A DNA stretch of 64,000 nt from NCBI GenBank assembly GCA_964436015.1, contig CAYTAR010000001.1, positions 28,321-92,320 of the forward strand, given 5' to 3'. Positions 8,915 to 49,772 of the stretch are shown here, piece after piece. Made by a program: the position numbers and the translations under genes. The number at the start of each line of letters is the position of its first letter. Positions within the stretch are counted from its first letter, which is position 1. The notes under the pieces are model-generated. The model was not told where the DNA came from, did no database searches, and saw only the letters and a list, made by a program, of their open reading frames with translations. The DNA comes from an uncultured Candidatus Saccharibacteria bacterium (GTDB lineage Bacteria; Patescibacteriota; Minisyncoccia; Phycocordibacterales; GCA-2401445).

Positions 8915-11701
8915 ATGAAATATTTTTTCGCAATAGTTATAGTGTTCGCAGGACTTGTGTTGCCACAAGTGTCTTATTCAACAGGAGGACACGGCTGTGT
9001 TCTTGAAATCACCAAATCTGTGTCTAAGACAGAGGTAAAGCCTGGTGATTCAGTAGAGTTTACTCTTGATTTTAAGAATAGTGGGACTGGTAACTGTACG
9101 GGAGGAGGAGTTCGAGTACAAGACGTACTTGACTCAAATCTCACCTTTGTGAGCGCTACGAAATCTTCAAACGTGACACTTGGGTATTACAACGGAGTGC
9201 CGTTATACAATTCACAAAACAATACAGTTAGTTTTAATGCAAACACGCTGAGTCCTGGAGAGGTGGGTTGGGCAAAAATTGTTGCAACCGTGAATCAAAT
9301 TTCAGCTTGTGGCATAACTGAGATAAAGAATAAGGCACAGATTACTTCAAAAGAAATAGCGGGAAGCAGTGTAACTTCTTCAAATCCTTCTGTGTGGGTT
9401 ACGAGTAATGAGGTAGTTATGTCATACAATAAAGTATGTACTCCACCCCTTACCGCTATTTGCGAAGCTGACCCTGCATCAGTGCTCACTAATGAACCGG
9501 TTACCTGGTCTGCATTTGCAACTGGAGGAACTGGATCGTACACGTACGCGTGGAGTGGGGATCAAGGATTGAGTGGTGCTGGTGATACGGTAACCCATTC
9601 ATATGGTTTTGATGGAACAAAGCAAGCGCAAGTTATTGTAACTTCTGGGTCAGACCAATATACCGCTAACTGTAGTGTGAAGGTAACTGAACAACCCCTT
9701 TCGGAAGCGTGTCCGTTCGTACCAGCTCTCAATAGAACAATAATTTCTTTTGGTAATAAGAAAATTTTTGCGAATAGAACTCCCGCAGAGACTTATGTTG
9801 GACCAGTATCAGTAACTGTGCCGTCAGGCACCTACGTAGTTAGTTTGGCGTCATACGATGGCTACACGGGACGACGAACAGCGGTACAAACAAGCGAACG
9901 GTGGTTTCTTGAGCTTGCAAACTCAACACAAAAAGTAGAATCGGGCATTATCGCTGATGTTCCAGATCCAACCAATTCTGATTATGCAAAAATTGAGGAA
10001 ATGGTAAATCAAGCACTCTACATACCTTTCGACGTGACTCATGCCTACGCTCGTCACGCGGTTGTTTTTGGTGGAATATCAGGAACTGGAGCAAATAGCT
10101 TAAACCCGATATGTGCATCTCTTGATCTAGTTAATACAGAAACAGATATTTCACTTGTCTGCGAAGCTGACCCTGCATCAGTGCTCACTAATGAACCGGT
10201 TACCTGGTCTGCATTTGCAACTGGAGGAACTGGATCGTACACGTACGCGTGGAGTGGGGATCAAGGATTGAGTGGTACAAGCAGTTCACTTATGAAGTCG
10301 TATACAACGACGGGAGTAAAAAATGCTTCAGTTACAGTTACTTCAGGTACAAAAACTAAAACAGTAGAATGTAGTGTACAGGTCACACAAAGTACAACAA
10401 ATCCACCTTTAAATGCAGTCTGCGAAGCTGACCCTGCATCAGTGCTCACTAATGAACCGGTTACCTGGTCTGCATTTGCAACTGGAGGAACTGGATCGTA
10501 CACGTACGCGTGGAGTGGGGATGGAGGAGTAAACGCTACTACGAGTACCTTTACTAATACATACTCAACATCTGGTACTAAGAAAAATGAAGTAATTGTT
10601 GTTTCTGGTAGTGATCAGGTTACTCGCGAGTGTACCGTTGAGGTAACTTCAGGAGGAACGGGTGGTTCTCCGTTTGATGCAGTGTGTAAAGTAAGTGCGT
10701 CATCTGTGGGAATTGGATCTCTCGTTACCTATACCGCAGAGGCTGTAGGAGGAACAGGAAATTACACATACCTTTGGAGTGGAGATCAGGTTGATGGTAA
10801 TACGCAAGCGGGCGTTAATACTTCGTATACTTCAGTAGGAACTAAAAACGCGAGCGTTGCAGTAACTTCTGGTAGCGAGACCATTTCTTTGTCATGTAGT
10901 ACGTTGGTTACCGGTGGTGGAGGTGGATGTGTGGGTGGATGTGGTGGGGGTGGACCAACACCGCCTGTAGTAACTTTGCTTAAAAAGTTTTTCCCAGCAG
11001 AAGTAGTGCCACAAGATGAGTATCTTTCAATATACTTGAGTGCAGTTCCATACACCGGACTTGGTCCAACAGCTAAGACGATGATCGTTATCCTCTCTGC
11101 GTTAGTTTTGAGTGCTGGAATTGCATTTCTTCTTTCAAAGAAAATAGCAACACCAGGTGTTGCGCCACTTCGCACAAGAGATGCTCGTACAGAGAATCAT
11201 CCGCTTGCATCGTTTGGTATATTTGAACGGTCTGAAGTAAAGAATACTTCAAAACCTTACACGGAGTTTCTTCCAACTGAAGGCGAAATTCCTTCATACA
11301 TGCGACACGACGCTCACGAAGATACGACTAACGTAAATTATGAAAATGGTTTAAAAGCTACTACTCACACGGTGCATAGTGATGCGCGCGCACTGCTTAC
11401 CGCAATCGCACACAAAGATAGTGGTTCTGCCTTTGCGATTATTCGTGCAGAGCGTGCAAATGAGGTTAAGTTTGCAGAGTACATGACCGAAGTGGTATCT
11501 GCGCTCGATGCGGTATACCGAGAACGAATTGAAGGTAAGTATGCAAATGCAGACCATGAACTCAGTATGTTGTTCTCACGTTGGAGTAGTGAACAATTGG
11601 AGAGATTGATTACTCAGTTACTCCGTGCGGTAAATATGACCTATGCCGATGCGTACACCGCAACTCAGTTAGCTCTCGTTAGTGCACTCAATACTAATTA
11701 A
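8915..11701 (+). CDS. Large surface protein with signal peptide, four PKD-like repeat modules, Gly/Cys-rich stalk, internal sorting-signal-like segment (VPYTG + TM + KK) and 190-aa C-terminal domain
   Basis: Signal peptide MKYFFAIVIVFAGLVLPQVSYS; repeated CEADPASVLTNEPVTWSAFATGGTGSYTYAWSGD modules; GGGGGCVGGCGGGGPTPP; VPYTG-LGPTAKTM-IVILSALVLSAGIAFLL-SKK; adjacent to sortase. Confidence 0.75.
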   Translation: MKYFFAIVIVFAGLVLPQVSYSTGGHGCVLEITKSVSKTEVKPGDSVEFTLDFKNSGTGNCTGGGVRVQDVLDSNLTFVSATKSSNVTLGYYNGVPLYNSQNNTVSFNANTLSPGEVGWAKIVATVNQISACGITEIKNKAQITSKEIAGSSVTSSNPSVWVTSNEVVMSYNKVCTPPLTAICEADPASVLTNEPVTWSAFATGGTGSYTYAWSGDQGLSGAGDTVTHSYGFDGTKQAQVIVTSGSDQYTANCSVKVTEQPLSEACPFVPALNRTIISFGNKKIFANRTPAETYVGPVSVTVPSGTYVVSLASYDGYTGRRTAVQTSERWFLELANSTQKVESGIIADVPDPTNSDYAKIEEMVNQALYIPFDVTHAYARHAVVFGGISGTGANSLNPICASLDLVNTETDISLVCEADPASVLTNEPVTWSAFATGGTGSYTYAWSGDQGLSGTSSSLMKSYTTTGVKNASVTVTSGTKTKTVECSVQVTQSTTNPPLNAVCEADPASVLTNEPVTWSAFATGGTGSYTYAWSGDGGVNATTSTFTNTYSTSGTKKNEVIVVSGSDQVTRECTVEVTSGGTGGSPFDAVCKVSASSVGIGSLVTYTAEAVGGTGNYTYLWSGDQVDGNTQAGVNTSYTSVGTKNASVAVTSGSETISLSCSTLVTGGGGGCVGGCGGGGPTPPVVTLLKKFFPAEVVPQDEYLSIYLSAVPYTGLGPTAKTMIVILSALVLSAGIAFLLSKKIATPGVAPLRTRDARTENHPLASFGIFERSEVKNTSKPYTEFLPTEGEIPSYMRHDAHEDTTNVNYENGLKATTHTVHSDARALLTAIAHKDSGSAFAIIRAERANEVKFAEYMTEVVSALDAVYRERIEGKYANADHELSMLFSRWSSEQLERLITQLLRAVNMTYADAYTATQLALVSALNTN
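9461..9577 (+). repeat. Intragenic nucleotide-identical repeat copy 1 (117 nt) encoding PKD-like module start
   Basis: tgcgaagctgaccctgcatcagtgctcactaatgaaccggttacctggtctgcatttgcaactggaggaactggatcgtacacgtacgcgtggagtggggatcaaggattgagtggt identical to 10160-10276; antisense ORFs share identical peptide MYDPVPPVANADQVTGSLVSTDAGSASQ. Confidence 0.9.
10160..10276 (+). repeat. Intragenic repeat copy 2 (117 nt, identical to copy 1)
   Basis: Direct reading of sequence. Confidence 0.9.
10421..10522 (+). repeat. Intragenic repeat copy 3 (~101 nt identical, then diverges)
   Basis: Direct reading of sequence. Confidence 0.9.
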
Positions 11702-33703: not shown

Positions 33704-34115
33704 GTCATCAATAGAGACCTATTGACGCACTATAGTGATGCGTGGTATTTTCCTTTTGGAAGAAATTCACTCTCGTATCAAAAACCACCCTCGCCTGAAG
33801 TGAGGTAATGGTGGCCTGAAGCCATTTTACAAAGTGGAAAAACACAACTGAATATGCTTGACCCTTACTCCATTGTCACTTTGGATGAAAGTCCATCCAT
33901 GCTTGACATGTACGCTCTTACTTCGTTCGCGAAAAGGAATTCACTCTTGAAGAGATCGAGGCACTCTCCGGTGGAGCTTTTGAATAAGGTAAGAAAATCG
34001 CTTCATGACATATATGTTGCGTGCGGTTTGCTTATTCTCTTCGTCTGTGTACTCGGCATTGCGCTTGTCGGTATGACACAAAATTCCTCCGTTACGGTTT
34101 TCGGACTCGTCGTGT

Positions 34116-34520
34116 GTGGGTTTACACATTGCAGGTGTTGTTGTATACGGCGGAGTTCTGTTTACAAGTAAAAACAGATACTCCAGATTAATGGAGCACT
34201 TATGCTCTCCTCCGCATGAAGTGAGTCGCGAATACGAAGTACTACTTATTGCGAGAAATCTTAACCTGGGAATTCTTTCTCTACTGTCAATGCGCGAAAG
34301 TGAGTTACGACGACTAGTTGATGCTTGCTTGTTCTCCATCACTCAGGAGATACTTCGGATTGAAAATGAAGGAAAGAGAGCTGGCTCATCTTATTCCGAA
34401 CTGCGAGAAGAGTTTGCTCAGAAGCATCGTTTATTCTTGAAATACGAACTTGCAGGAGAAGATTGGGGATATTATTTCAGAAAGGCGGAAATGCTTCTCA
34501 GTCGACCACTTGAATCTTAA
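34116..34520 (+). CDS. Hypothetical protein (region 33854-34520 has two overlapping frames; possible degraded gene)
   Basis: ORF ends 8 nt before a strong terminator; upstream ORF 33854-34171 in another frame; no family recognised. Confidence 0.3.
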   Translation: MGLHIAGVVVYGGVLFTSKNRYSRLMEHLCSPPHEVSREYEVLLIARNLNLGILSLLSMRESELRRLVDACLFSITQEILRIENEGKRAGSSYSELREEFAQKHRLFLKYELAGEDWGYYFRKAEMLLSRPLES

Positions 34521-34527
34521 GTGGTTA

Positions 34528-34560
34528 GCAAAACCCAAGCGCATGCGCTTGGGTTTTTTC
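34528..34560 (+). terminator. Rho-independent terminator
   Basis: aaacccaagcgcatgcgcttgggttttttc: 11-bp stem cccaagcgcat/atgcgcttggg plus T-run. Confidence 0.75.
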
Positions 34561-34779
34561 TATAGACAACATAGTAAAATGTATTAGTTTGTTTTATACT
34601 TTATGTAGTATGAATTCTACAGAAAACATCAAATCAACATGTGAAAAGACTTAGAGACTGTCCAAAACCTCACGTCGGAATGAAATGTTCAAATTTTTAA
34701 GTAAAAATAGATATTTTGAGGAATAATATATGGATATGGTGACGAGAAATAGCCATTTTGTAGCGAGAATTTGAGTATT

Positions 34780-35060
34780 TCAGCCGGCGAGCGTGTTTGG
34801 TTTTCCTTTACGGTGAAGTATTAGCTTTTGCGCGAACCCACTTTGCACGCGCGGAGCGCGTGGTGACTTGAAACTGCGTCTTACGCTCCGATTGCGTGGA
34901 AATGCTAACCAATGCGGCTCGGCCGCGCGCGCCTTGCTCGCGCGGGGCAAAACCCAAAAATTTCCTTTTCATTTTTTGTCGGCCCCCCACACACCCGCCG
35001 CGAAGCGGAAGATTTGAAAGGAAAGAAATTTTATGGTTTTACTGCCGCCGCTTCAATTTC
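34780..35060. other. GC-rich (~60% GC) non-coding segment with multiple GC stems in an otherwise AT-rich locus; unidentified (candidate structured RNA or foreign remnant)
   Basis: Runs such as ggctcggccgcgcgcgccttgctcgcgcgggg, ggccccccacacacccgccgcgaagcgg; ORFs here are Arg-rich artefacts. Confidence 0.4.
34812..34847 (-). repeat. Left copy of 36-bp inverted repeat (32/36 identical to 41445-41480 in opposite orientation)
   Basis: + strand ggtgaagtattagcttttgcgcgaacccactttgca = reverse complement of tgcaaagtgggttcgcgcaaaagctaatacttcacc; right copy tgcgaagtgggttcgcgcaaaggctaatacatcacc. Confidence 0.85.
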
Positions 35061-35068
35061 AACATACT

Positions 35069-35115
35069 TGTAATATATTACATTATTGTCATAGGACACA
35101 ATATTTGGCTATAAT
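35069..35115 (+). promoter_or_regulatory. Promoter of XRE-led operon (-35 TTGTCA 35086-35091, -10 TATAAT 35110-35115) overlapped by a 14-bp perfect palindrome TGTAATATATTACA (35069-35082), candidate XRE operator
   Basis: Direct reading. Confidence 0.5.
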
Positions 35116-35121
35116 ACATCT

Positions 35122-35338: not shown

Positions 35339-36409
35339 ATGAAGAAATCTAAAAAAATAAAAGTTGCGCTTGTTGGTATAGGAAATTGCGCAAGTTCTCT
35401 TGTTCAAGGTGTTTCATTTTATTCAAGATCAGAAAATACGACAGTCGGGTTAATGCATCCCAATTTTGCCGGATTTAAGGTGTCTGATATTGAATTTGTT
35501 ACCGCGTTTGATGTCGATAAAAGAAAAGTGGGAAAAGATCTCGCAGAAGCAATATTTCAAAAACCTAACTGTGCCAAGAAGTTTCAAGGGGTTGAACTAT
35601 TAAATATCAAGGTATTGAAGGGACACGTTTTAGATGGTGTAGCACCTCATATGCAAGAATACTTTATTGTCGATGACGAACAGAAATCAGTTGACATTGC
35701 GCAGGAATTACATAAAAGCGGCGCAGAAATGCTCATCTCTTATTTACCAGTGGGTAGTGCTGAAGCGTCGAGATTTTATGCTAATGAGGCAATAAAGGCT
35801 GGAGTCGGATTTATTAACGCTATTCCTGAATTTATTTGTTCTAAGCCAGAATGGATAGCTAAATTTAAAGAAAAAGGAATACCTTGTGCTGGTGATGATA
35901 TAAAATCACAATTTGGCGCAACTATTTTGCATAGGATTGTAACAAGATTTATTGAAGATCGTGGACATAAGATTGATAACACATATCAATTAAATATCGG
36001 CGGGAATACAGATTTTTTAAACATGAAAGATGAAAGTCGATTGGCTTCAAAAAGATTATCAAAAACGAATGCGGTGACTTCAATACTTGGAGAAAAAGAG
36101 TTCGGGGTTCGAATTGGTCCTAGTGATTACATACCACACCTTAATGACAATAAAATTTGCTATATAAATGTTAAAGGTAAACAATTTGGAGGACTACCTT
36201 TTGAATTAGATATTAAATTAAGTGTTGAAGATAGCCCGAATAGTGCTGGTGTTATGATAGATGTTATTAGAGCCATGAGAGTTGCCCTTGATTGTGGAAT
36301 CTCGGGAAACTTAGAAGCAATTAGTGCATACTATTTTAAGTCACCAGAAGTTCAATATAGAGACGATATTGCTAGGACAATGGTTGAAGACTTTATCAAT
36401 TTTAATTAA
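35339..36409 (+). CDS. ino1: myo-Inositol-1-phosphate synthase (short archaeal/bacterial type, 356 aa)
   Basis: NAD-binding KVALVGIGNCASSLVQG (yeast Ino1 LVGLGGNNGSTL), QLNIGGNTDF (SYNHLGNNDG), SKRLSKTNAV (SKEISKSNVV). Confidence 0.8.
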   Translation: MKKSKKIKVALVGIGNCASSLVQGVSFYSRSENTTVGLMHPNFAGFKVSDIEFVTAFDVDKRKVGKDLAEAIFQKPNCAKKFQGVELLNIKVLKGHVLDGVAPHMQEYFIVDDEQKSVDIAQELHKSGAEMLISYLPVGSAEASRFYANEAIKAGVGFINAIPEFICSKPEWIAKFKEKGIPCAGDDIKSQFGATILHRIVTRFIEDRGHKIDNTYQLNIGGNTDFLNMKDESRLASKRLSKTNAVTSILGEKEFGVRIGPSDYIPHLNDNKICYINVKGKQFGGLPFELDIKLSVEDSPNSAGVMIDVIRAMRVALDCGISGNLEAISAYYFKSPEVQYRDDIARTMVEDFINFN

Positions 36410-36418
36410 TAAGATTTT

Positions 36419-37639
36419 ATGATTTACATACATAAAAAAGAATTATTAGAGCCTGAGTATGAATTTGTCGAACGTAAAGGTCTTGGACACCCAGACACCT
36501 TGTCGGATGCTCTTGCTGAGTTTTTGTCAGTTAACTATTCAAACTATACTCTGAAGAATTTCGGCGCAGTCTTACATCATAATTTTGATAAAGTTGGATT
36601 ACTTGGAGGTGCTTCATTTGTAAAATTTGGTGAGGGATACTTAACAAAACCTATAAGAGTATTACTTAACGGTCGCGCTTCAACAAAATTCGGGGATAAA
36701 AATATTCCTGTTGAAGATTTGTTAAAATCTTGGGTTAGTGAATTTCTGCTAAACAAATTTAGAGATCTAATAAAAGAAAGTGATCTGGAAATTCATTATA
36801 ATTTAAGTACTCAAAGTAGCCCTGGTAAAACTGAAGACTTTAAGTCTACAAATACTCCTCGAAAGTTTTGGTTTGAACCAAGAAATTTTGACGATCTTCC
36901 GGAGACTAAAAAATTATTCTCCAATGATACTTCTTTGGGTGTAGGTTACGCTCCTCATTCTAAATTAGAGAGACTTGTTTTAGATATTGAAGAAACTTTA
37001 AACTCTAAGAGTTTTAAAAAGGATCATCCGTGGATAGGATCCGATATTAAAATAATGGGCACGAGGCATGGTCAGCAGTTTGGTATAACTTTATGCATAC
37101 CGCAAATAGCTAACTACGTACATTCGGTTGATGAATATAGACAAAATTTAGAGCAGACTAAACAAGTTATTTTCAGGATTTCTCAAAATGTTGGAATAAA
37201 TAATCTTGAGTTATCGTGTAATACTCGTGATAATTTAGAGACAAAAGAACTTTATCTTACGGCGATCGGTTCATCAATAGAAAGCGGTGATGAAGGTTTG
37301 GTTGGTAGAGGGAATAGAGTAAACGGGATAATTTCACCTACAAGACTTATGAGCATGGAAGGGGCTTGCGGTAAAAATCCTGTTTATCATATCGGCAAGA
37401 TTTACTATGTGGCTGCCAACGAGATTAGTAAAAAAATATTTGAAAAGTTTGGCGTCGCAAATGAAGTTTCTTTGATTAGCCAAAGTGGCCGAGATTTACT
37501 TGATCCATGGAAGACCTTCGTTACTTTATACAATTCAGATATAAGCGAAGAACTGGTTCTGATTTTTGTTGAAAACGAGTTAAAAAATATTCCAGAAATA
37601 ACCAGAGGCCTATTAGAGAATAAATTAAGGCTATTTTAA
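36419..37639 (+). CDS. mat: S-adenosylmethionine synthetase, archaeal type (PF01941-like), 406 aa
   Basis: Near-colinear with archaeal MAT: [79 protein letters not shown]; lacks bacterial MetK GHPDKIxDQISD and GGGAFSGKD motifs. Confidence 0.85.
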
Positions 37640-37650
37640 ATTTTAATGTT

Positions 37651-38775
37651 ATGGAAAAGATGCCTAATCAAGAAAAAGAAATAACAAGACTGGAATATTT
37701 GACTACCCATGTTGGTCTAGTCAGGCAACTTGATGAAAAATATTTGCTTGATGAGAAAGTATATTCAACAGATATTCAAAATGAAAGCTTATTAGAACAC
37801 ATACCGACAATTAAGCCGGATAGAGTGATTAGACAGGAAGGAGACACGACTATTTTTACTTCAGCTGGTATTCAGCACCTTGAAACTCTTGAACGTGACA
37901 AAATTAATTTAGAAAGGGAGAAGTTCAAAATTGCACAACCGGTTGTTCGCAGTCAGTTTATGGATAAGATCAAAGAAGGTTATTCGACATCTTTTATAGA
38001 TGAGGCCACCACTCAACTCGGAGTATCTGATGAAGATTTTTTTAGTATGTGTAAACAAATGGTAATCAATTCGTTAAATCATGATGCGGATATACAAAAA
38101 TACCATTTAACAATTGAGGCTCAGGATGATCGTTGGGGTCAAAAAAAGTTCACCAAATTAGTCGTTACTTTGTATTATGATGGGAACGAAGTGTCAGAAG
38201 GTGTATATATAGATAAATTTCCTAAAATTGATGGGCAGACTGTCTCTGTTGCCGAAACAACCCACAGCGCCGAAAGATTTAATTGGATTCACAGAGAAAA
38301 TCGAGACCGACCATATTTTATTGGCTTTGAAGAATTCTATAATACTGATAATAAAGATGATGTCGCAAGAATTATAGATCCCGTCAGAACTGCTACATTG
38401 ATGCTCATGCAAGGAGTTGTTCCATCACATAAGGATCCCGGATTCAGATTAAGACAGCTGATTAAAAGATTTGTGGAAAGAAATGCCGAGACTTCTTTTT
38501 CTGAAGATAGACTTTTAAATTTATCACATGATTTTTGGTTAGGAAATAACGTTGAAGGAATTGTTGATAAGGTCGAGATTCGTGAATTGTTAAAGAAAGA
38601 AATGACACGTGCTCAAAATGTACACATTGTCAGTTGGGTCGAGATAAATACTGGTAAGAAAATTAAGGTTGATGTGAATCTAAGCACAGATGAATTTCTT
38701 AAAAGGATCTATTCTTCATCACCAGAGGAGATTATTGGGGTAGTAAAAAGTATTAATTTAAAAAAATATGAGTAA
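37651..38775 (+). CDS. Alanyl-tRNA synthetase catalytic-domain paralog (truncated, 374 aa; motif 3 degenerate) - putative amino acid ligase
   Basis: Colinear matches to E. coli AlaRS N-terminal region: TTIFTSAGIQ (LLFTNAGMNQ), AQPVVRSQ (SQRCVRAG), RIIDPVRTATLMLMQGVVPSHKDPGFRLRQLIKRFVER ([39 protein letters not shown]); position of DTGMGLERI occupied by ETTHSAERF; no editing or C-Ala domains. Confidence 0.7.
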   Translation: MEKMPNQEKEITRLEYLTTHVGLVRQLDEKYLLDEKVYSTDIQNESLLEHIPTIKPDRVIRQEGDTTIFTSAGIQHLETLERDKINLEREKFKIAQPVVRSQFMDKIKEGYSTSFIDEATTQLGVSDEDFFSMCKQMVINSLNHDADIQKYHLTIEAQDDRWGQKKFTKLVVTLYYDGNEVSEGVYIDKFPKIDGQTVSVAETTHSAERFNWIHRENRDRPYFIGFEEFYNTDNKDDVARIIDPVRTATLMLMQGVVPSHKDPGFRLRQLIKRFVERNAETSFSEDRLLNLSHDFWLGNNVEGIVDKVEIRELLKKEMTRAQNVHIVSWVEINTGKKIKVDVNLSTDEFLKRIYSSSPEEIIGVVKSINLKKYE

Positions 38776-39445
38776 ACTTTTTTTAAGCGGTGGTGGCGAT
38801 ATAGAGACATCTTATCCGTTCGATAGTCTATTCTTTGATTCACTGCCACAGAGCGCGAATATTCTTTATATTCCCATTGCAATGGCAACCACCATGGCTA
38901 GAACAGAAGCATCTTTTGACTGGTTTTCAAAATTGATTTCAAGTCATTCAAGTAGCGACAAACACTTGGACTTTACTGTGTGGAATACTGGAGATTCTTT
39001 ACCTATCCTACATAATTACAATGCTGTATATGTTGGTGGTGGTAATACATATAGACTCTTGATGATGTTAGAAAAACCAGGAATGCTTGATGCTCTAAAA
39101 AAATATATCAGAAATGGTGGTATCTATTATGGTGGGAGCGCCGGTGCCGTGATTGTTGGTAAAAGCTTACGGACAGTGGATGAAGAAAATTTAGAAAATT
39201 ATTCAAAGCGTGATGGTATGAATCTTATTAATAATCTTTCTATATTCCCACATTTTTCAGATAGTGAGGAGCAAAAAAATATCATTAGAAATATCTGTGG
39301 CAATTATGCTTTAACGATAGCCGCGCTTCCTGAAGGCTCAGGTCTTGTTCTCGATGAGCGAGGCATAAGTGTTTACGGTAATATGTATTTATATGAACAA
39401 GAAAAGAAAACTCTTTTTTATACATCTGGGCAAATTATCAAGTAA
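38768..39445 (+). CDS. Peptidase S51 family protein (peptidase E / cyanophycinase-like serine hydrolase)
   Basis: VYVGGGNTYRLL, nucleophile motif YGGSAGAV, His in IFPHFSD; overlaps upstream gene by 8 nt. Confidence 0.7.
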   Translation: MSKLFLSGGGDIETSYPFDSLFFDSLPQSANILYIPIAMATTMARTEASFDWFSKLISSHSSSDKHLDFTVWNTGDSLPILHNYNAVYVGGGNTYRLLMMLEKPGMLDALKKYIRNGGIYYGGSAGAVIVGKSLRTVDEENLENYSKRDGMNLINNLSIFPHFSDSEEQKNIIRNICGNYALTIAALPEGSGLVLDERGISVYGNMYLYEQEKKTLFYTSGQIIK

Positions 39446-40595
39446 TTCTGGTCATACAGCGCGATTGCGGTATGAGTTAAAGGATATCAGCAAGACGGCG
39501 GATATTTCGATTCTGTCTTTGACAAATGAGCCTGACCAATCTTTCATCAATAAAAATCCAAATATACATTTTTATGTTTTGCCGATTAAGTTTAATGGCT
39601 GGAAAGTCGTTAATTTGGGTCATATTGTAGGGCAGATAAATGAAATAATCAGCTTTTGTAAGCCAGATATTGTTATTTTGTGTGTTGAGATCTGGGATTT
39701 AATTTTAGGGTTACATAAAAAAATATCTGACAAAGTAGTGTTTTGTGCTATATGCCACGCAATGCCATTTTTGGGTTCACCCTTGAATCCAACAAAATCC
39801 TTTGAATCAGATGTAAGGAAATTTGCTAATAAGCAAACGCTAAAATACAGAAAAAACTATATTACCAAACATTACAGAGAATTTCCTAAAATTATAAACT
39901 CTGGCTTACTAATTGCAAATAATGCAACCGTTGCTTTTTATTTCAAAAATTATTTCCCGAGGTCATCGTTTTGGAGACAAGTGCCTCATGTTACAGTTGA
40001 TCCGCTTAAAACGTCTAAAACCCTAGATATTGAGTATGATTTTTGTTATATGGCGAGAATGGAGAAAGGAAAAGGAGTAGAATATCTGCAAGATTTGTTT
40101 AGCAGAATTTCAATCAAGTTGGGTAGAAAAATCAGTGTGGCAATCATGGGCAGAGCTGATGATAAGTACTCCCAAGAAGAACTTAGAGGGCTACTTGAAA
40201 GTGAAGGTGAATCTTTTTCCGTTCGTTTTTTCGGTTGGGCTGATGATAAAACCAAAGCTGAAGTGTTGAGTAAAAGTGGTTGTTTTATTTATCCGTCAAC
40301 TTACGATAATTTTCCGACAGTGGTTAATGAAGCTATGGCTCATAGCTTACCTGTGGCAATGTGGGATACTCTTTTTTATAAAGTTAACTATTCTGACATA
40401 AAGTCTGTATCTGTGGCTACTCCTTTTAATGTTGAGCATCTGGCTTCAGTGGCCGTGAATCTGTTACAAGGAAAATCTACCTTACGTCGCCATTCTATAG
40501 AATACATAAAGGAAAATGGTGGCTCCAGATCAGTCGCAAAAGATGATCTTATACTATTTGATGAGATAATTAAGCGTTATGAAAGAAATAAATAA
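39393..40595 (+). CDS. Glycosyltransferase family 4 (GT-B; MshA/PIG-A-like retaining GT); ORF track start 39369
   Basis: C-terminal GT4 signature FIYPSTYDNFPTVVNEAMAHSLPVAMWD (EX7E-type motif). Confidence 0.8.
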   Translation: MNKKRKLFFIHLGKLSSNSGHTARLRYELKDISKTADISILSLTNEPDQSFINKNPNIHFYVLPIKFNGWKVVNLGHIVGQINEIISFCKPDIVILCVEIWDLILGLHKKISDKVVFCAICHAMPFLGSPLNPTKSFESDVRKFANKQTLKYRKNYITKHYREFPKIINSGLLIANNATVAFYFKNYFPRSSFWRQVPHVTVDPLKTSKTLDIEYDFCYMARMEKGKGVEYLQDLFSRISIKLGRKISVAIMGRADDKYSQEELRGLLESEGESFSVRFFGWADDKTKAEVLSKSGCFIYPSTYDNFPTVVNEAMAHSLPVAMWDTLFYKVNYSDIKSVSVATPFNVEHLASVAVNLLQGKSTLRRHSIEYIKENGGSRSVAKDDLILFDEIIKRYERNK

Positions 40596-41352
40596 TAACT
40601 TTGAAAGAATTTTCCCGAAAAAGAATGTTATTGTAATGCTTCATGCTCACGCTGATGATGAATCTTTCTTGTCGGCTGGTACTATAAATGAATTTATAGT
40701 ACGCAATTATAATGTCTTATTGATCTATTTGGCTACAGGTCTTATTGAAGAAGAAAAAAGAACAACAATTAGACGGAAAGAGCTCACCGAAGCTTTAAAG
40801 GTCTTGGGAGTAAAAAATGTAGAGTTTCTTGAGTATTGTGAACCTAAATATACCGTAAATGGTAAACCTCTTTATTTACAATCAATAAAAGAAATTTCAA
40901 ATAACATTAGAACAATTATTGAAAAAAGAGGTATAAAACATTATACGCTTTTTTCATATGATAAAAACGGTGGCTACGGCAATAAAGATCATCTCGTAGT
41001 ACATAAGGCAGGTAGGTTGTTATTCGTAAATTCGTCACCGGTTAGTCTACTATTTGAGATGACAATCCCAAGAGATGTATACTTGCGTTGGATCGGAAAA
41101 TATAAAAATAATGTTCCTGAATTATATTTACCGAAACTAAATTACTGGTCTACAGAATTTGGACTAAAAAACGAAGAGATTGATTATTTTTTTTTATTAA
41201 ACTCTCTACAAATAAAATTAAAGAAAAAAGCTCTTAGTAAACATGTCTCACAAATAAAGAATAAGGAATTCCCATTATCTCTCACTAATGCCGATTTTAT
41301 AGAATTATTCGGTAGAGAATATTTTGCTTATATTGATACATCGATTCTGTAA
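40579..41352 (+). CDS. PIG-L/LmbE-family N-acetylglucosaminyl deacetylase (MshB/BshB-like)
   Basis: VIVMLHAHADDESFLSAGTI (AHPDDE motif), GNKDHLVVHKAG (HxDH zinc ligands); overlaps upstream gene by 17 nt. Confidence 0.8.
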   Translation: MKEINNNFERIFPKKNVIVMLHAHADDESFLSAGTINEFIVRNYNVLLIYLATGLIEEEKRTTIRRKELTEALKVLGVKNVEFLEYCEPKYTVNGKPLYLQSIKEISNNIRTIIEKRGIKHYTLFSYDKNGGYGNKDHLVVHKAGRLLFVNSSPVSLLFEMTIPRDVYLRWIGKYKNNVPELYLPKLNYWSTEFGLKNEEIDYFFLLNSLQIKLKKKALSKHVSQIKNKEFPLSLTNADFIELFGREYFAYIDTSIL

Positions 41353-41444
41353 GGTGTCACTAACTTGACCGAAGCACAGAGCGAACATGAAGAAAGCACC
41401 GGAGAGGCTCTGTGAACGAATGTGAGCGGCGAGTGCAAGGTGCT

Positions 41445-41480
41445 TGCGAAGTGGGTTCGCGCAAAGGCTAATACATCACC
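41445..41480 (+). repeat. Right copy of 36-bp inverted repeat (pairs with 34812-34847), followed by weak hairpin/T-run 41487-41512
   Basis: tgcgaagtgggttcgcgcaaaggctaatacatcacc; lies in 5' leader of helicase gene. Confidence 0.85.
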
Positions 41481-41538
41481 AATCAACCCGTCAGAATGGC
41501 GGGTTTTTTTGCGCGAGGATACAAGGTATACTACTGCA

Positions 41539-46007: not shown

Positions 46008-46709
46008 ATGACATCAGAGACTACGAGATTTATGTTTGTCCTGCCGATACTGTTTCAGAGTATTATTTATATTGTTATATATATACCATTTAAGGTCTTT
46101 GCTCGTTTTAAAGTGCATGGACTAGAAGAGTTGTCTTTACAACCACAAGGGTTAATTTTTGCTCCGAATCACACCAGTGAGTGGGATCCGATACTTGTTC
46201 GTTTCGCACTTCCACTATTCTCAAGGAAGTTCAGTCCTATGTACTATGTGGCTCGGCAAAGACGTGAGTATACAGAATCAGGTTTGAGACAGTTTTTTTA
46301 TGGAGGTGTTTTTTTCAAATTAGTTGGCGGTTATCCTCGTTACTCAGGTAAAAAAAATTACAATTACTCACTGTTCAATCATATACATCTGTTAAAAAGA
46401 AAAAAAAATGTTACTATTTTCCCTGAAGGAAAAAAGTATGTTGGTGAGATTAATAGAAAAGTTCATGGAGGGGTAGCATTTCTCTCTCATGTAACCAGTA
46501 CACCAGTGATTCCTGTTGCAATCAAAGGTATAGAAAACTTCTCATTAATACGTTTCTTTTCTTTTAAAATGAGAATTTCTGTTACATTTGGAAAGCCAAT
46601 TGATCCACTTACTATTATTCCGCAAACAAATCCAGCTGTTGAAGACTACCAACTAGGTGCACAGTTTATATGGGAAAAAATTCTTGATTTACAACAGCAG
46701 AAACTATGA
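46008..46709 (+). CDS. plsC: 1-acyl-sn-glycerol-3-phosphate acyltransferase family (PlsC/OlsA-like)
   Basis: HxxxxD motif NHTSEWDP, FPEGKK motif, N-terminal TM. Confidence 0.75.
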   Translation: MTSETTRFMFVLPILFQSIIYIVIYIPFKVFARFKVHGLEELSLQPQGLIFAPNHTSEWDPILVRFALPLFSRKFSPMYYVARQRREYTESGLRQFFYGGVFFKLVGGYPRYSGKKNYNYSLFNHIHLLKRKKNVTIFPEGKKYVGEINRKVHGGVAFLSHVTSTPVIPVAIKGIENFSLIRFFSFKMRISVTFGKPIDPLTIIPQTNPAVEDYQLGAQFIWEKILDLQQQKL

Positions 46710-47458
46710 TTACAATAAAAAAACTGACTATTCTAGAGGGAAAGAATAAAAAAACAATAGAATTTGGTATAGCAAATACTCCTGAGGAATTAGAAAAAAT
46801 TTTTAAACTTAGATTTGAAGAGTACTCTAAAAGAGATTATATTTTCAATGAGCGTTACCAAGACAAAAGAGAAGTAGACTTCTATGATGGGCTTATAAGT
46901 ACAAAATATTTCTGTGCATTCCTAGAAGGAAAATTGATAGGTACTATACGGTTAATTACTGAAAAACCACTACCAACGGAACAATATTTTGATTTTACTC
47001 CTCCAGACGAAATAAAAAATCTTCCTAAAGAAAAGTTAGCAGAACTAGGTAGATTTATTGTAATTCCACCTGATCGAGACAAAAAAATTTTTTTACCAAG
47101 AAATGTAGTTTTACTTTTTTTAATAGAAGTGCTTGTCACTTACGCGAAAGAACAAGGTTTAGTGGGCGGATATGCATTTATAAAGCAGTCTTTGATTATA
47201 AAGTTAAAAAAGCTGTCTGCGCCAATTAAGCAAATACCTGTTTATAAAATGCATTATCCAGATGATGGTTCTTTATACAAGTATTTTTATCAAAAAGAAA
47301 ATCCCGTCTTTCCTTGTTATTATGTGTTAGAGGATTTTCAAAAGTACCTGAATAAATTAATTCATTCAGAATGGTTGTTCAAAAAGATAGGCATAGGTCA
47401 TTTTCAATTACGTAGCAACTTATATACTAAGTTTTTAAAAGTTTTTAAGGTATTATAA
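46706..47458 (+). CDS. GNAT-fold N-acyltransferase, N-acyl amino acid synthase / OlsB-like (putative)
   Basis: GKLIGTIRLI and ELGRFIV motifs resembling NAS/OlsB/exosortase-associated acyltransferases; start overlaps plsC stop (ATGA). Confidence 0.5.
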   Translation: MITIKKLTILEGKNKKTIEFGIANTPEELEKIFKLRFEEYSKRDYIFNERYQDKREVDFYDGLISTKYFCAFLEGKLIGTIRLITEKPLPTEQYFDFTPPDEIKNLPKEKLAELGRFIVIPPDRDKKIFLPRNVVLLFLIEVLVTYAKEQGLVGGYAFIKQSLIIKLKKLSAPIKQIPVYKMHYPDDGSLYKYFYQKENPVFPCYYVLEDFQKYLNKLIHSEWLFKKIGIGHFQLRSNLYTKFLKVFKVL

Positions 47459-47462
47459 AGGT

Positions 47463-48167
47463 ATGTTAAATGATACTTTCTGGGAAAAATATTTTTCTGT
47501 GTATGATGCCTTGAATAAATTAATACCTTATCAGGAATTATTAAATCAAATTGTCCTTTCGGCGGGAGAATTAAATGATAAAAAGATACTTGATGCGGGT
47601 TCTGGTACAGGTAATCTCTCTGTGTTGCTTTCTATGTCTGGGGCTACCGTTACGGGAATAGATTATTCTAGAGTAGGGGTATCTATACATAAATCAAAAT
47701 TGCCGAATAGTAAAGTGGTAGTTTCTAATTTGTGCGATTTGCTTCCATTCGAAAGTTCTGAATTTGATGTTGTGGTTTCAAATAATACACTTTACACGAT
47801 TCCTAGGAAGGAAAGAGAGTCTATAGCGCATGAGTTTTTTAGAGTATTAAAACCTGGTGGAAGGGTGGTTATATCTAATCTCAAAGTTAACTTTTCACCA
47901 TTAAAAATTTATATTGACCATTTACAAAAGTCTTTATCAGTAAATGGTTTCTTGAAGACAGTTTATACAGCTTGTAAACTCATACATCCTACAATTAAAA
48001 TTTTTTATTATAATAAATTAATTCAAAACGAAAACCGTAGTGGCTCATATGATTTTTTTGAAGATAATGAGCAATCAGAACTTTTAATTAGAGCCGGATT
48101 TTCGAAAATAACTCTTGTTAAAGATGTATATTCCAAGCAAGGTGAATTAGTGGTCGCTCTAAAATAA
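47463..48167 (+). CDS. Class I SAM-dependent methyltransferase
   Basis: Motif I ILDAGSGTGNLSVLL, motif post-I VTGIDYS, motif II FDVVVSNNTLY, LKPGGRVVIS. Confidence 0.8.
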   Translation: MLNDTFWEKYFSVYDALNKLIPYQELLNQIVLSAGELNDKKILDAGSGTGNLSVLLSMSGATVTGIDYSRVGVSIHKSKLPNSKVVVSNLCDLLPFESSEFDVVVSNNTLYTIPRKERESIAHEFFRVLKPGGRVVISNLKVNFSPLKIYIDHLQKSLSVNGFLKTVYTACKLIHPTIKIFYYNKLIQNENRSGSYDFFEDNEQSELLIRAGFSKITLVKDVYSKQGELVVALK

Positions 48168-49772
48168 ATGAATAGTTTTCTCAGCATTTTAATTTATTTT
48201 GTGTTAGTCACCAATGTTATATTGGGTGTTGTTATTCTTTCAAGAGGGATAAAAAATACACTTAATATACTATTCGGGATGCTTACATTTAGTGTATCTT
48301 TTTGGTGTATAAGTGTCATTGGTTTTTATTCACCTAATTTCCCACTTGAAACTAAATGGACGGCGTGGACACATCTGTTTGCATTACTAATAAGTTATAT
48401 TTTTTTCTTTTTCAGCACCCGTTTCCCCTCCAAGATGCGCATACGTAAATTAATTTACTTCATTGCCTTCATTCTATTTTTTGTAGTTGTTTATCTACTA
48501 TTTTACAGCAACATTATTGTAGGAAATACTATTGATTTTAAATATGAGGTCAACTTTGGTTACTACATCTACGCATTGATTATTTCTTTTTTCTTTTTAT
48601 CTGGCTACTATACATTTGCACTTCAGTATCGCAATCAGAGTGAACATGTAAAAAAGAATCAAATCAAATATATTTTTTTAGGCTCGTTTTTATCTTCTAT
48701 ACCAGCTATTATTACTAATCTTTTGCTTCCTGCTATAGGTATTTTTAACTATACGTGGCTTGGTCCAATATTTACAGTCTTTCTTGTGGGCTCTATCTTT
48801 ATAGCTATTTTTAGATTTCACCTCTTCAATATTAAAGTTATTATTACTGAAATAATTTCTATTTTCATAATTTCAGTTCTAACAATAGAGATGTTTTTAG
48901 CACAATCAGTTATTTCACTCCTAACAAAAACTTTTGTTTTGATGCTCTTTACTGTACTTTCTTATTTCCTTATAAGAAGTGTCTACAAAGAAGTTGAAGC
49001 AAAGGAGGAAAACTTTAAGCTTGCGGCTAATCTCTCTAAAGCAAATGCTAAACTCCGTGCGCTTGATAGGCAGAAATCAGAATTTCTTTCTATTGCGTCT
49101 CACCAAATACGAGGACCGCTCGCTTCTATCAAGGGTTACGCCTCGCTTATCTTAGAGGGGTCTTTTGGTAAGATTAATCCTAAAGCACGTGAAGCGGTTG
49201 AGCGTATCTTTAGTTCCAGTCACAACCTCGTCCTTGTGGTTAATGATTTCCTTGATGTGTCTCGAATTGATCAAGACAACATGAAGCTCACCCCGGTGTT
49301 GCTTGATTGGAGAAAGGTGGCTAAAGAAACTATTGATGAGCTCCAACCCTCAGTTGAGAAGCGTGGTCTTAAGATTAAGTTTTCAACTGACAAGAAGGTG
49401 TCCTACCCAATATATGCTGATATAGGTAAAGTAAAGCAAATAATTTCTAACCTTGTAGATAATGCTGTGAAATATACTCCAAAGGGAAGTATTGCAGTAT
49501 TCCTTGAAAAGAAAAAGGATGTATTTCGTCTTACCATTTCAGATACTGGTATTGGTATGAGTGAAGAAACAATTTCAGTATTGTTTGAAAAATTCAGTCG
49601 TGCAAAAGACGCTGGAAAAGTAAATATTATGGGCACCGGACTCGGTTTGTATGTCGTTAAGAAGCTTGCGATAATGCAAAAGGGTAAAGTGTGGGCAGAA
49701 TCAGATGGAGAAGGCAAGGGTTCTCGCTTTATAGTGGAATTTCCAATTCATACAGAAAAAAGTGCAACATAA
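48168..49772 (+). CDS. Sensor histidine kinase with 7-TM N-terminal sensor domain (orphan: no adjacent response regulator)
   Basis: HisKA H-box LSIASHQIRGPLASI; HATPase_c N-box DNAVKYT, G1 DTGIGM, G2 GTGLGLYVVKKL; start ATG immediately follows methyltransferase stop. Confidence 0.85.
   Translation: MNSFLSILIYFVLVTNVILGVVILSRGIKNTLNILFGMLTFSVSFWCISVIGFYSPNFPLETKWTAWTHLFALLISYIFFFFSTRFPSKMRIRKLIYFIAFILFFVVVYLLFYSNIIVGNTIDFKYEVNFGYYIYALIISFFFLSGYYTFALQYRNQSEHVKKNQIKYIFLGSFLSSIPAIITNLLLPAIGIFNYTWLGPIFTVFLVGSIFIAIFRFHLFNIKVIITEIISIFIISVLTIEMFLAQSVISLLTKTFVLMLFTVLSYFLIRSVYKEVEAKEENFKLAANLSKANAKLRALDRQKSEFLSIASHQIRGPLASIKGYASLILEGSFGKINPKAREAVERIFSSSHNLVLVVNDFLDVSRIDQDNMKLTPVLLDWRKVAKETIDELQPSVEKRGLKIKFSTDKKVSYPIYADIGKVKQIISNLVDNAVKYTPKGSIAVFLEKKKDVFRLTISDTGIGMSEETISVLFEKFSRAKDAGKVNIMGTGLGLYVVKKLAIMQKGKVWAESDGEGKGSRFIVEFPIHTEKSAT

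Follow-up and report, generated by a model that had tools for sequence, protein, structure and literature searches.

In a 64,000-nucleotide stretch of the genome of an uncultured Candidatus Saccharibacteria bacterium (GenBank assembly GCA_964436015.1, contig CAYTAR010000001.1, positions 28,321 to 92,320; hereafter the window), one gene encodes a truncated, stand-alone paralog of the catalytic domain of alanyl-tRNA synthetase (AlaRS), which we named AlaL. The family to which it belongs is large, ancient and wholly unannotated, is concentrated in bacteria of the candidate phyla radiation (CPR), and is linked by gene order and by gene fusions to an archaeal-type methionine adenosyltransferase (MAT, the S-adenosylmethionine or SAM synthetase), an S51 (PepE-like) serine hydrolase, glycosyltransferases and seryl-tRNA synthetase (SerRS). 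We favour the reading, with a probability of roughly 40%, that AlaL is an AlaRS-derived, non-translational aminoacyl-transfer enzyme working with MAT and S51 in a conserved small-molecule pathway that combines an amino acid and a sugar; its donor, its acceptor and the role of SAM are what we infer below. The family would be a widespread, uncharacterised variant of a recently recognised kind of protein, the stand-alone AlaRS catalytic-domain paralog acting as aminoacyl transferase, and the partner set of MAT, S51, SerRS and glycosyltransferases is previously undescribed.

AlaL consists of a class II aminoacylation core followed by the Mid1 half of the tRNA-recognition domain. Taken as a single sequence it appears only weakly AlaRS-like: the Pfam model tRNA-synt_2c (PF01411) scored 22.3 bits (E 5.8e-5, residues 231-284 only), below its gathering score of 30.3; the NCBIfam model alaS (TIGR00344) gave 19.3 bits against a cutoff of 457; phmmer with AlaL alone against the PDB returned E 0.13; and tblastn of E. 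coli AlaRS against the window found nothing, the AlaL open reading frame included. The relationship becomes secure because relatives could be added in profile, alignment and fold comparisons. A 20-sequence family profile retrieved AlaRS chains only from the PDB (best 3hxu, E 9e-8). When a 142-sequence alignment of the family was compared globally with AlaRS by hhalign, AlaRS being represented by the E. coli enzyme and one CPR AlaRS, the probability was 99.3% and E 2e-19, with AlaL residues 1-374 colinear with E. coli AlaRS residues 1-389. Further, the top 27 Foldseek matches in the PDB for the AlphaFold2 model of AlaL (predicted local distance difference test score 85.3, predicted template-modelling score 0.84) were AlaRS without exception (E 1e-11 to 5e-8); GlyRS-alpha and PylRS came next. 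AlaL therefore shares the fold of AlaRS and aligns colinearly with it. A first-pass annotation, made from the letters of the window alone, had called the gene a 374-residue truncated AlaRS catalytic-domain paralog, and in this it was right: the reading frame is exactly as given there, the best profile and structure hits are to AlaRS and not to another class II family, and the pairings FTSAGIQ/FTNAGMNQ, QPVVRSQ/QRCVRAG and ETTHSAERF/DTGMGLERI and the PSHKDPGFRLRQLIKR helix were all reproduced. Since the alignment covers AlaRS 1-389 only, the editing and C-Ala domains are missing, as that annotation had noted, and so is the Asp400 element of Mid2.

Conservation was counted in 142 diverse family members (AlaL residues are named first, E. 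coli AlaRS equivalents in brackets). Judged by this alignment, the family keeps the class II core of AlaRS (class IId). R100 (motif-2 Arg69), F115 (F90, the adenine-stacking Phe) and R209 (motif-3 Arg242) are each found in 142/142, the motif-3 Glu, E208, in 139 and W162 (Trp170) in 136; the position of E202 (Asp235) is Asp in 132 members and Glu in 10. In AlaRS, Trp170, Asn212, Asp235 and Gly237 all belong to the alanine pocket. E180 (Glu209) is kept in 107, with Gln in 19, and V185 corresponds to V214. No Cys or His is conserved that could hold zinc. The change that sets the family apart from AlaRS lies at Asn212, whose equivalent (E183 in AlaL) is Asp or Glu in 120 of the 142; besides, the motif-2 loop is shorter and the insertion at AlaRS 189-208 is missing. 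The AlaRS-derived core has an intact site for adenine and alpha-phosphate beside a pocket for a small amino acid, with an acid added at the Asn212 position.

Motif 3 had been described as degenerate in the first-pass annotation, which is true of AlaL and not of its family. AlaL reads E202-T-T204-H-S206-A-E208-R209 where AlaRS has D235-T-G237-M-G239-L-E-R242, so that both glycines are replaced while E208-R209 is retained. Among the relatives, position 204 is Gly in 116/142 and position 206 in 134/142, and motif 3 is a canonical D-x-G-F-G-x-E-R in ~90%, most often D-I-G-F-G-L-E-R. Because ~90% of the relatives are canonical and the motif-3 Arg is invariant, the degeneracy is a peculiarity of AlaL's own clade and not a family-defining trait. 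AlaL departs from the >=80% family consensus at six positions only, five of which line the active site (N117D, G182S, D202E, G204T, G206S). In the active site of AlaL, R100, F115, W162 and E208-R209 are kept, Asn212 is turned into E183 and Asp235 into E202, and the glycines are lost.

The most AlaRS-like portion of the helical part (D243, R246, G255, P258-S259, G264-Y-R266, R268 and K272) matches the AlaRS segment bearing Asn303, which together with Asp400 we take to read the G3:U70 pair in E. coli. The Asn303 position is Asn in 75/142 members and His (H260) in AlaL. A review attributes the reading of G3:U70 to an Asp-plus-Asn architecture. The Mid1 helix-loop-helix has a median net charge of +4, a value shared with E. 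coli AlaRS, and is positive in 95% of members; this basic helix, which contacts the tRNA acceptor stem in AlaRS, is conserved in the family.

Fold, class II motifs and an acceptor-stem helix would also be kept by a true alanyl-tRNA synthetase that serves translation in minimal or split form, a reading that we consider effectively refuted for the family. At one locus (L021) the contig with the paralog also carries a canonical AlaRS, 8 kb away, whose identity to the E. coli enzyme is 39.8% over residues 35-420 and which is matched in editing-domain residues 575-698 too. Because this canonical AlaRS shares a contig with a family member, the family is, on sequence grounds, not the housekeeping enzyme, and the full alaS that the first-pass annotation had thought worth seeking elsewhere was found in this relative. 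The same conclusion is drawn from the score against the curated alaS model, far below its cutoff, from the family-wide acid at Asn212, from the replacement of Asp235 by Glu and Gly237 by Thr in AlaL (Asp202 and Gly204 prevail in the family), and from the end of the protein before the Asp400 element. Neither alaS nor a gene for the C-terminal half of AlaRS, adjacent or otherwise, is found in the 64-kb window, and a role as sole or split AlaRS was dropped.

A word-indexed search for relatives returned 32 clusters, every named one being a 'hypothetical protein', and the same search with a wide alignment added three further proteins, none of them named. An exhaustive profile search then gave 867 representatives at E<1e-3, 325 at E<1e-10 and 175 at E<1e-30, clusters being counted at 50% identity. 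The members are nearly all stand-alone proteins of 330-430 residues, ~20-25% identical to AlaL, and their taxonomic labels are mainly from Patescibacteria (Uhrbacteria, Gracilibacteria, Paceibacterota, Shapirobacteria), with at least one in a reduced-genome Bacillota. In some members the paralog is fused to another domain: to S51 (P0166), to a glycosyltransferase of a second family that we call c5 (P0159, P0125), to a GT-A-like domain (P0133) and to an MTS/TRM5-TYW2-like methyltransferase (P0145, a weak assignment with E about 1e-6 to 1e-7). These fusions confirm functional links of the paralog to S51 and to glycosyltransferases. Three distant members (P0151, P0168, P0172; high-GC or acidic) carry a Cys-rich, zinc-ribbon-like CxxC...C segment at the N-terminus, before the core, and are possibly of archaeal or halophilic origin.

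In order to describe the partners of the paralog we counted genes within 4 kb of it at 46 loci from public contigs and GTDB genomes, non-redundant at 80% identity. MAT was present at 43 of them and S51 at 35, followed by SerRS (16), a GT4-family glycosyltransferase (13), the c5 family (11), myo-inositol-1-phosphate synthase (Ino1, 9), a PIG-L de-N-acetylase (8), radical SAM proteins (6), Amidohydrolase_2 (4), RelA/SpoT (4) and an APH-like kinase (3). Ino1, GT4 and PIG-L are confined to one super-clade, while MAT and S51 persist down to 25% paralog identity. The near-obligate linkage to MAT and S51 had been passed over in the first-pass annotation. Seen from the other side, among 80 metagenome MAT loci, counted only where at least 3 kb were available on both sides, bacterial-clade MAT had the paralog nearby in 17/23 cases and the paralog or S51 in 19/23, against 0/8 with the paralog for archaeal-like MAT. 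Counts in which the Candidatus Gracilibacteria locus L015 takes part are underestimates: MAT, paralog, S51 and GT4 appear there only as short fragments under genetic code 11, which is to be expected if UGA is a sense codon, as is reported for Gracilibacteria. In two loci (L004, L005) an S66 (MccF-family) peptidase stands in place of S51, and APH-like and Zeta-like kinases occur in some. MAT-S51 pairs (L037, L038, L039, L045, L084) and Ino1-MAT pairs (L036, L040, L048, L058) were also seen where no paralog was detectable, and these genes therefore have an association of their own. A bacterial MetK was found nowhere in ~1.07 Mb of contigs, in which about one copy is expected by chance, so that this absence is uninformative. 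We also considered S51 as a Cys-type glutaminase for an AsnA-like amidation and rejected it, since the nucleophile in its GGSAGA motif is Ser, with the His and Glu of PepE likewise retained.

SerRS tracks the paralog, not MAT: it occurs with the paralog at 15/33 loci and with MAT at 1/22 (Fisher p = 9e-4). It is found in varied arrangements and in several deep sub-clades (L022, L025, L028, L035, L043, L053, L054, L055, L061, L065, L070, L075, L080, L082, and as fragments in L015 and L081), and is absent from the window and from its super-clade. tRNA-Ser genes are frequent nearby as well. The search for a dedicated tRNA gene consistently linked to the paralog gave none.

Neighbours of this sort, often translation genes (SerRS, GluRS, RelA), could point to a tRNA- or protein-modifying enzyme like GluQRS (YadB) or EpmA (PoxA), with the SAM, radical-SAM and glycosyl steps as parts of one hypermodification. 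The nucleic-acid-binding helix is kept, one fusion partner resembles TRM5-TYW2 methyltransferases, and paralogs of aminoacyl-tRNA synthetases (aaRSs) with roles in modifying tRNA or protein have precedent. But Ino1, PIG-L and S51 suit small-molecule chemistry better, no specific tRNA gene is linked, and the methyltransferase assignment is weak, and we hold such a role to be distinctly unlikely. Still less probable is a non-catalytic regulator or scaffold of MAT, comparable to HisZ, the HisRS paralog that regulates HisG. The tight, reciprocal linkage to MAT and the degenerate motif 3 of the AlaL clade would suit it; yet invariant catalytic residues in proteins so divergent are unexpected in a pseudo-enzyme, the fusion partners include S51 and glycosyltransferases but not MAT, and in roughly one of four informative loci MAT stands without the paralog.

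The first-pass annotation had held that free-standing AlaRS catalytic-domain paralogs are not a well-described family. Such paralogs are not undescribed, however: AcmF (GenBank KJ817374), from ascamycin biosynthesis in Streptomyces sp. JCM9888 / 80H647, has been characterised as an Ala-tRNA-dependent transferase. AcmF is a truncated AlaRS-like protein of 370 residues whose only domains are those for aminoacylation and tRNA recognition; it carries the substitutions N219Q and D232E and is devoid of the Asp-plus-Asn reader of G3:U70. Its donor is Ala-tRNA-Ala, which the full-length AlaRS AcmD supplies, and it moves the alanine to the sulfamate amine of an adenosine analogue. This acceptor occupies the former adenylate pocket, lined by R93, E216, Q219 and the essential E232, and Gln219 touches the sulfamate; AcmF is reported to be devoid of most ATP-binding residues. 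The genes run acmD (aaRS), acmE (hydrolase), acmF, with the radical-SAM gene acmH nearby. AcmF has a relative in Leptospirillum (EDZ38785).

From this published description, as opposed to a comparison of sequences, AlaL may work like AcmF. Both are stand-alone and of two domains, of nearly the same length (370 and 374 residues); R93, E216, Q219 and E232 of AcmF would correspond to R100, E180, E183 and E202 of AlaL, with the equivalent of Asn212 replaced and that of Asp235 turned into Glu in both, and both are devoid of the G3:U70 reader. The setting of aaRS, hydrolase and paralog is common to the two, the aaRS of the family being SerRS and its hydrolase S51, and radical SAM proteins occur as well. 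On the other hand, the motif-2 Arg and the stacking Phe are retained in the family, as is motif 3 with its Glu-Arg; most members have Asp at position 202; and the motif-2 Arg and the E-x-x-[Q/E] strand are 80 residues apart in AlaL, as opposed to 123 in AcmF; no protein among P0001-P0181 fits the residue numbering of AcmF. AcmF also belongs to an actinomycete antibiotic cluster and acts on an adenosine sulfamate, whereas the family is encoded in CPR core-genome loci with MAT, S51, glycosyltransferases and SerRS. AsnA, HisZ, EpmA/PoxA, GluQRS, the SerRS-like amino acid:carrier-protein ligases and AlaX are likewise aaRS cores in non-translational acyl-transfer or regulatory roles. To our knowledge none of them goes back to the catalytic domain of AlaRS, AlaX being related to its editing domain, and none is linked to MAT and S51.

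In the window operon, whose genes are listed below together with neighbouring features, the likeliest acceptor is the amine of a glucosaminyl-inositol. Ino1 would make inositol phosphate, GT4 would add N-acetylglucosamine and PIG-L would deacetylate it to a free amine, following the logic of MshA and MshB; AlaL would then acylate this amine with a small L-amino acid (of the size of Ala, Ser or Gly), held by E202, the equivalent of Asp235, with E183 at the Asn212 position as base or as anchor for the amine. We lean to an acyl group arriving as aminoacyl-tRNA, as in AcmF, because the motif-3 glycines are lost in this clade, the Asp-to-Glu change is AcmF-like, the acceptor-stem helix is kept and SerRS is linked elsewhere in the family; an adenylate made in situ is the main alternative. 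S51 would be a cognate amidase that trims, proofreads or recycles, much as AcmE or Mca does, and the SAM made by MAT would feed some methylation or radical-SAM tailoring step.

Several observations weigh against this scheme. GT4 and PIG-L occur in one super-clade only, so that glucosaminyl-inositol cannot be the acceptor of the whole family, and the scheme does not explain the near-universal MAT, which may be the organisms' only MAT or may alternatively supply an adenosyl acceptor. The invariant Arg residues of motifs 2 and 3 would argue for ATP binding and in-situ adenylation over aminoacyl-tRNA; with the protein ending before Asp400 and His at the Asn303 equivalent, recognition of tRNA looks uncertain; and SerRS is absent from the 64-kb window. 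Moreover, the role given to S51 is an analogy, catalytic activity is a prediction for every member, and kinship with AcmF is argued from its description.

The same arginines are central to the proposal that AlaL is an ATP-dependent amino acid:amine ligase with a function like that of MshC or BshC, in which AlaL forms an aminoacyl-adenylate that the amine attacks, with no tRNA involved and the helical domain as a scaffold. The motif-2 Arg and stacking Phe are invariant, the motif-3 Glu-Arg nearly so, and the GxGxER of motif 3 is canonical in ~90% of members. An AlaRS N-terminal fragment of 368 residues, close in length to the AlaRS segment that AlaL covers, is reported to make the adenylate without charging tRNA. 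In its ATP-dependent lactyltransferase activity, the AlaRS core passes by way of an acyl-adenylate to amines other than those of tRNA, which it acylates, and the Ino1, GT4 and PIG-L neighbours mirror the order of the mycothiol pathway. The ligase is a strong rival, yet seems to us the less likely reading: the acid at the Asn212 position adjoins the alpha-phosphate site, where Gln219 of AcmF contacts the sulfamate, both motif-3 glycines are lost in the AlaL clade, and the basic acceptor-stem helix and the adjacency of SerRS would be left unexplained. The resemblance to MshC is one of function only, resting on Ino1, GT4, PIG-L and an aaRS-derived enzyme in one operon (35339-41352). MshC is a class I CysRS paralog in which zinc selects cysteine, and AlaL is class II and AlaRS-derived; a MshD-like acetyltransferase is not present with the window operon; and by score GT4 and PIG-L are not orthologous to MshA/BshA and MshB/BshB, the BshA model giving 15.9 bits for GT4 (cutoff 273.7) and the MshB model 43 bits for PIG-L (cutoff 224); GT4 is far below the cutoff of the MshA model as well. 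A mycothiol-like pathway for the whole family was rejected, since these accessory genes belong to one super-clade while MAT and S51 are constant, and we retain it for the window operon only.

The constancy of MAT is better accounted for by an AcmF-type transferase whose acceptor is a SAM-derived adenosyl compound seated in the old ATP pocket, the aminoacyl-tRNA being supplied by an aaRS, often SerRS, and the product cleaved by S51. As an N-aminoacyl-SAM is formally a dipeptide, it would be a natural substrate for a hydrolase of the S51 dipeptidase family. MAT is the most constant neighbour and its linkage is reciprocal; methyltransferase and radical-SAM genes are far rarer than MAT, so that SAM for tailoring alone cannot explain the linkage. 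The adenine-sandwiching Phe and Arg are invariant, the acid replacing Asn212 lies by the alpha-phosphate position, where a sulfonium would sit, and the set of aaRS, hydrolase, truncated AlaRS-like protein and radical SAM parallels acmD-acmE-acmF-acmH; the S66 peptidase found in place of S51 and the APH-like and Zeta-like kinases would also fit. Against these stand a MAT that looks ordinary, is possibly the only one of these genomes and could be a housekeeping neighbour; the invariant motif-2 Arg beside a cationic sulfonium; the lack of any known metabolite of the kind; and the position of the cluster in core-genome territory of minimal-genome organisms. We judge this transferase unlikely, and its extension, in which S51 cleavage would provide immunity, activation or recycling and glycosyltransferases, methyltransferases, radical-SAM enzymes and kinases would tailor the product, unlikely to the same degree. 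More broadly, and only tentatively, the trio of MAT, paralog and S51 may be the core of an unrecognised pathway, widespread in CPR/Patescibacteria and some reduced Bacillota and often joined by SerRS, glycosyltransferases and radical-SAM genes, which would transfer a small aminoacyl group, probably from aminoacyl-tRNA, to a SAM-derived or amino-sugar acceptor. Its product would belong to a new class of aminoacylated metabolites, being a mycothiol-like cofactor of ultra-small bacteria or an aminoacyl-nucleoside for host interaction.

The operon looks biosynthetic, as the first-pass annotation had put it, with the gene order Ino1-MAT-paralog-S51-GT4-PIG-L behind a small regulator. The S51 start overlaps the AlaL stop by 8 nt and there are several further stop/start overlaps. 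MAT can be aligned over its whole length with that of M. jannaschii, the Ser-His-Glu motifs of PepE are present in S51, and from their residues both look catalytically competent. Homologues of the XRE regulator stand beside the cluster in L031 (76% identical) and L008.

Table 1. Genes and other features of the AlaL operon (window coordinates)
Feature	Position	Strand	Remarks
Inverted repeat, left arm, 39 nt	34812..34850		continues into GC-rich segment to ~35100
Sigma-70-like promoter match, TTGTCA-18-TATAAT	35086..35115	+	11/12 positions, best in region
XRE-type helix-turn-helix (HTH) regulator, 70 aa	35122..35334	+	first operon gene; Pfam XRE/HTH_3, E 2.8e-15
myo-Inositol-1-phosphate (inositol-3-phosphate) synthase, Ino1	35339..36409	+	best NCBIfam model mycothiol-type INO1, below cutoff
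Archaeal-type MAT (SAM synthetase)	36419..37639	+	signature motifs intact
AlaL, truncated AlaRS paralog	37651..38775	+	ATG start, 374 aa
S51 (PepE-like) serine hydrolase	38768..39445	+	GGSAGA nucleophile motif; His and Glu motifs
GT4-family glycosyltransferase	39369..40595	+	family type of MshA, BshA, PIG-A; no close solved relative
PIG-L family de-N-acetylase	40579..41352	+	best NCBIfam models MshB and Mca, nearest structure MshB; all weak
Inverted repeat, right arm	41442..41480		35/39 nt identical, reverse orientation
Terminator-like hairpin, 9 bp stem then T-run	41485..41505	+	directly after PIG-L

Upstream of the operon lies core chromosome (pheT, gyrB, dnaE, smc, rnr, rpoB, rpoC, dnaG, rpoD), and after it an addA-like gene and, further downstream, gltX. 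The operon is bracketed by the inverted repeat (blastn E 1.5e-9 within the window) and has a GC content of 34.4% (29.8% in PIG-L) against ~41% in both flanks, and because of these two features we suggest that it is a laterally acquired or mobile cassette inside the core chromosome. Between rpoD and the operon there is an ORF-poor gap of ~1.4 kb (33704-35121), in which Rfam gave sub-threshold matches only (Atu_C9, 21.9 bits, E 0.003, 34530-34651, minus strand). A riboswitch or leader RNA before the operon was discarded, as no Rfam match reached its gathering score and the rest is sub-threshold noise. A GC-rich non-coding element (~34846-35100) contains a perfect hairpin, CACGCGC-GGA-GCGCGTG, followed by GTGACTTGAAAC. 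The same element was detected at L007:9935-10145, L008:7252-7396, L031:4169-4251, L009:3851-3886 and L081:2309-2368 and 6096-6155, the two copies in L081 being inverted and bracketing MAT-S51-paralog; it matches no Rfam family and could be a repeat similar to repetitive extragenic palindromes or miniature inverted-repeat transposable elements, a cassette boundary or a structured RNA. An anti-phage defence system was also considered and set aside, there being no PADLOC match.

Some other genes of the window were noted. About 5 kb downstream of the operon (46008-48167, plus strand), a PlsC-type acyltransferase, a FeeM/LuxI-like N-acyl-amino-acid (autoinducer-type) synthase and a SAM methyltransferase stand in a row; LuxI-type enzymes acylate the amine of SAM. 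These three were not retained as parts of the system, since they do not recur near the cluster in other loci, and are probably unrelated. The histidine kinase that follows (48168-49772) has a homologue within a few kb of the cluster in L004, L005, L014, L026, L027, L029 and L034, and may regulate the system; the copies in L004 and L027 carry a HisKA_7TM domain, and in the window copy HisKA and HATPase_c were the only domains detected. Finally, a 928-residue protein with DUF11, PKD and SprB repeats (8915-11701, plus strand), probably a surface or adhesin-like protein, is encoded in a region whose other genes are of the housekeeping type.

AlaRS counts among the aaRSs held to be most stable in evolution and has few paralogs, and AcmF, a single enzyme of an antibiotic pathway, was the only characterised paralog of its catalytic domain found in our literature search. 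The present family occurs mainly in CPR bacteria, a group of poorly understood metabolism, and its reproducible gene partnership opens its function to direct tests. Should its product indeed be an aminoacylated glucosaminyl-inositol or an aminoacyl-adenosyl compound, this would be a new conserved metabolite of ultra-small bacteria. The family would then represent a second, independent recruitment of an aaRS as a ligase, parallel to that of MshC, and would offer a scaffold for chemo-enzymatic aminoacylation.

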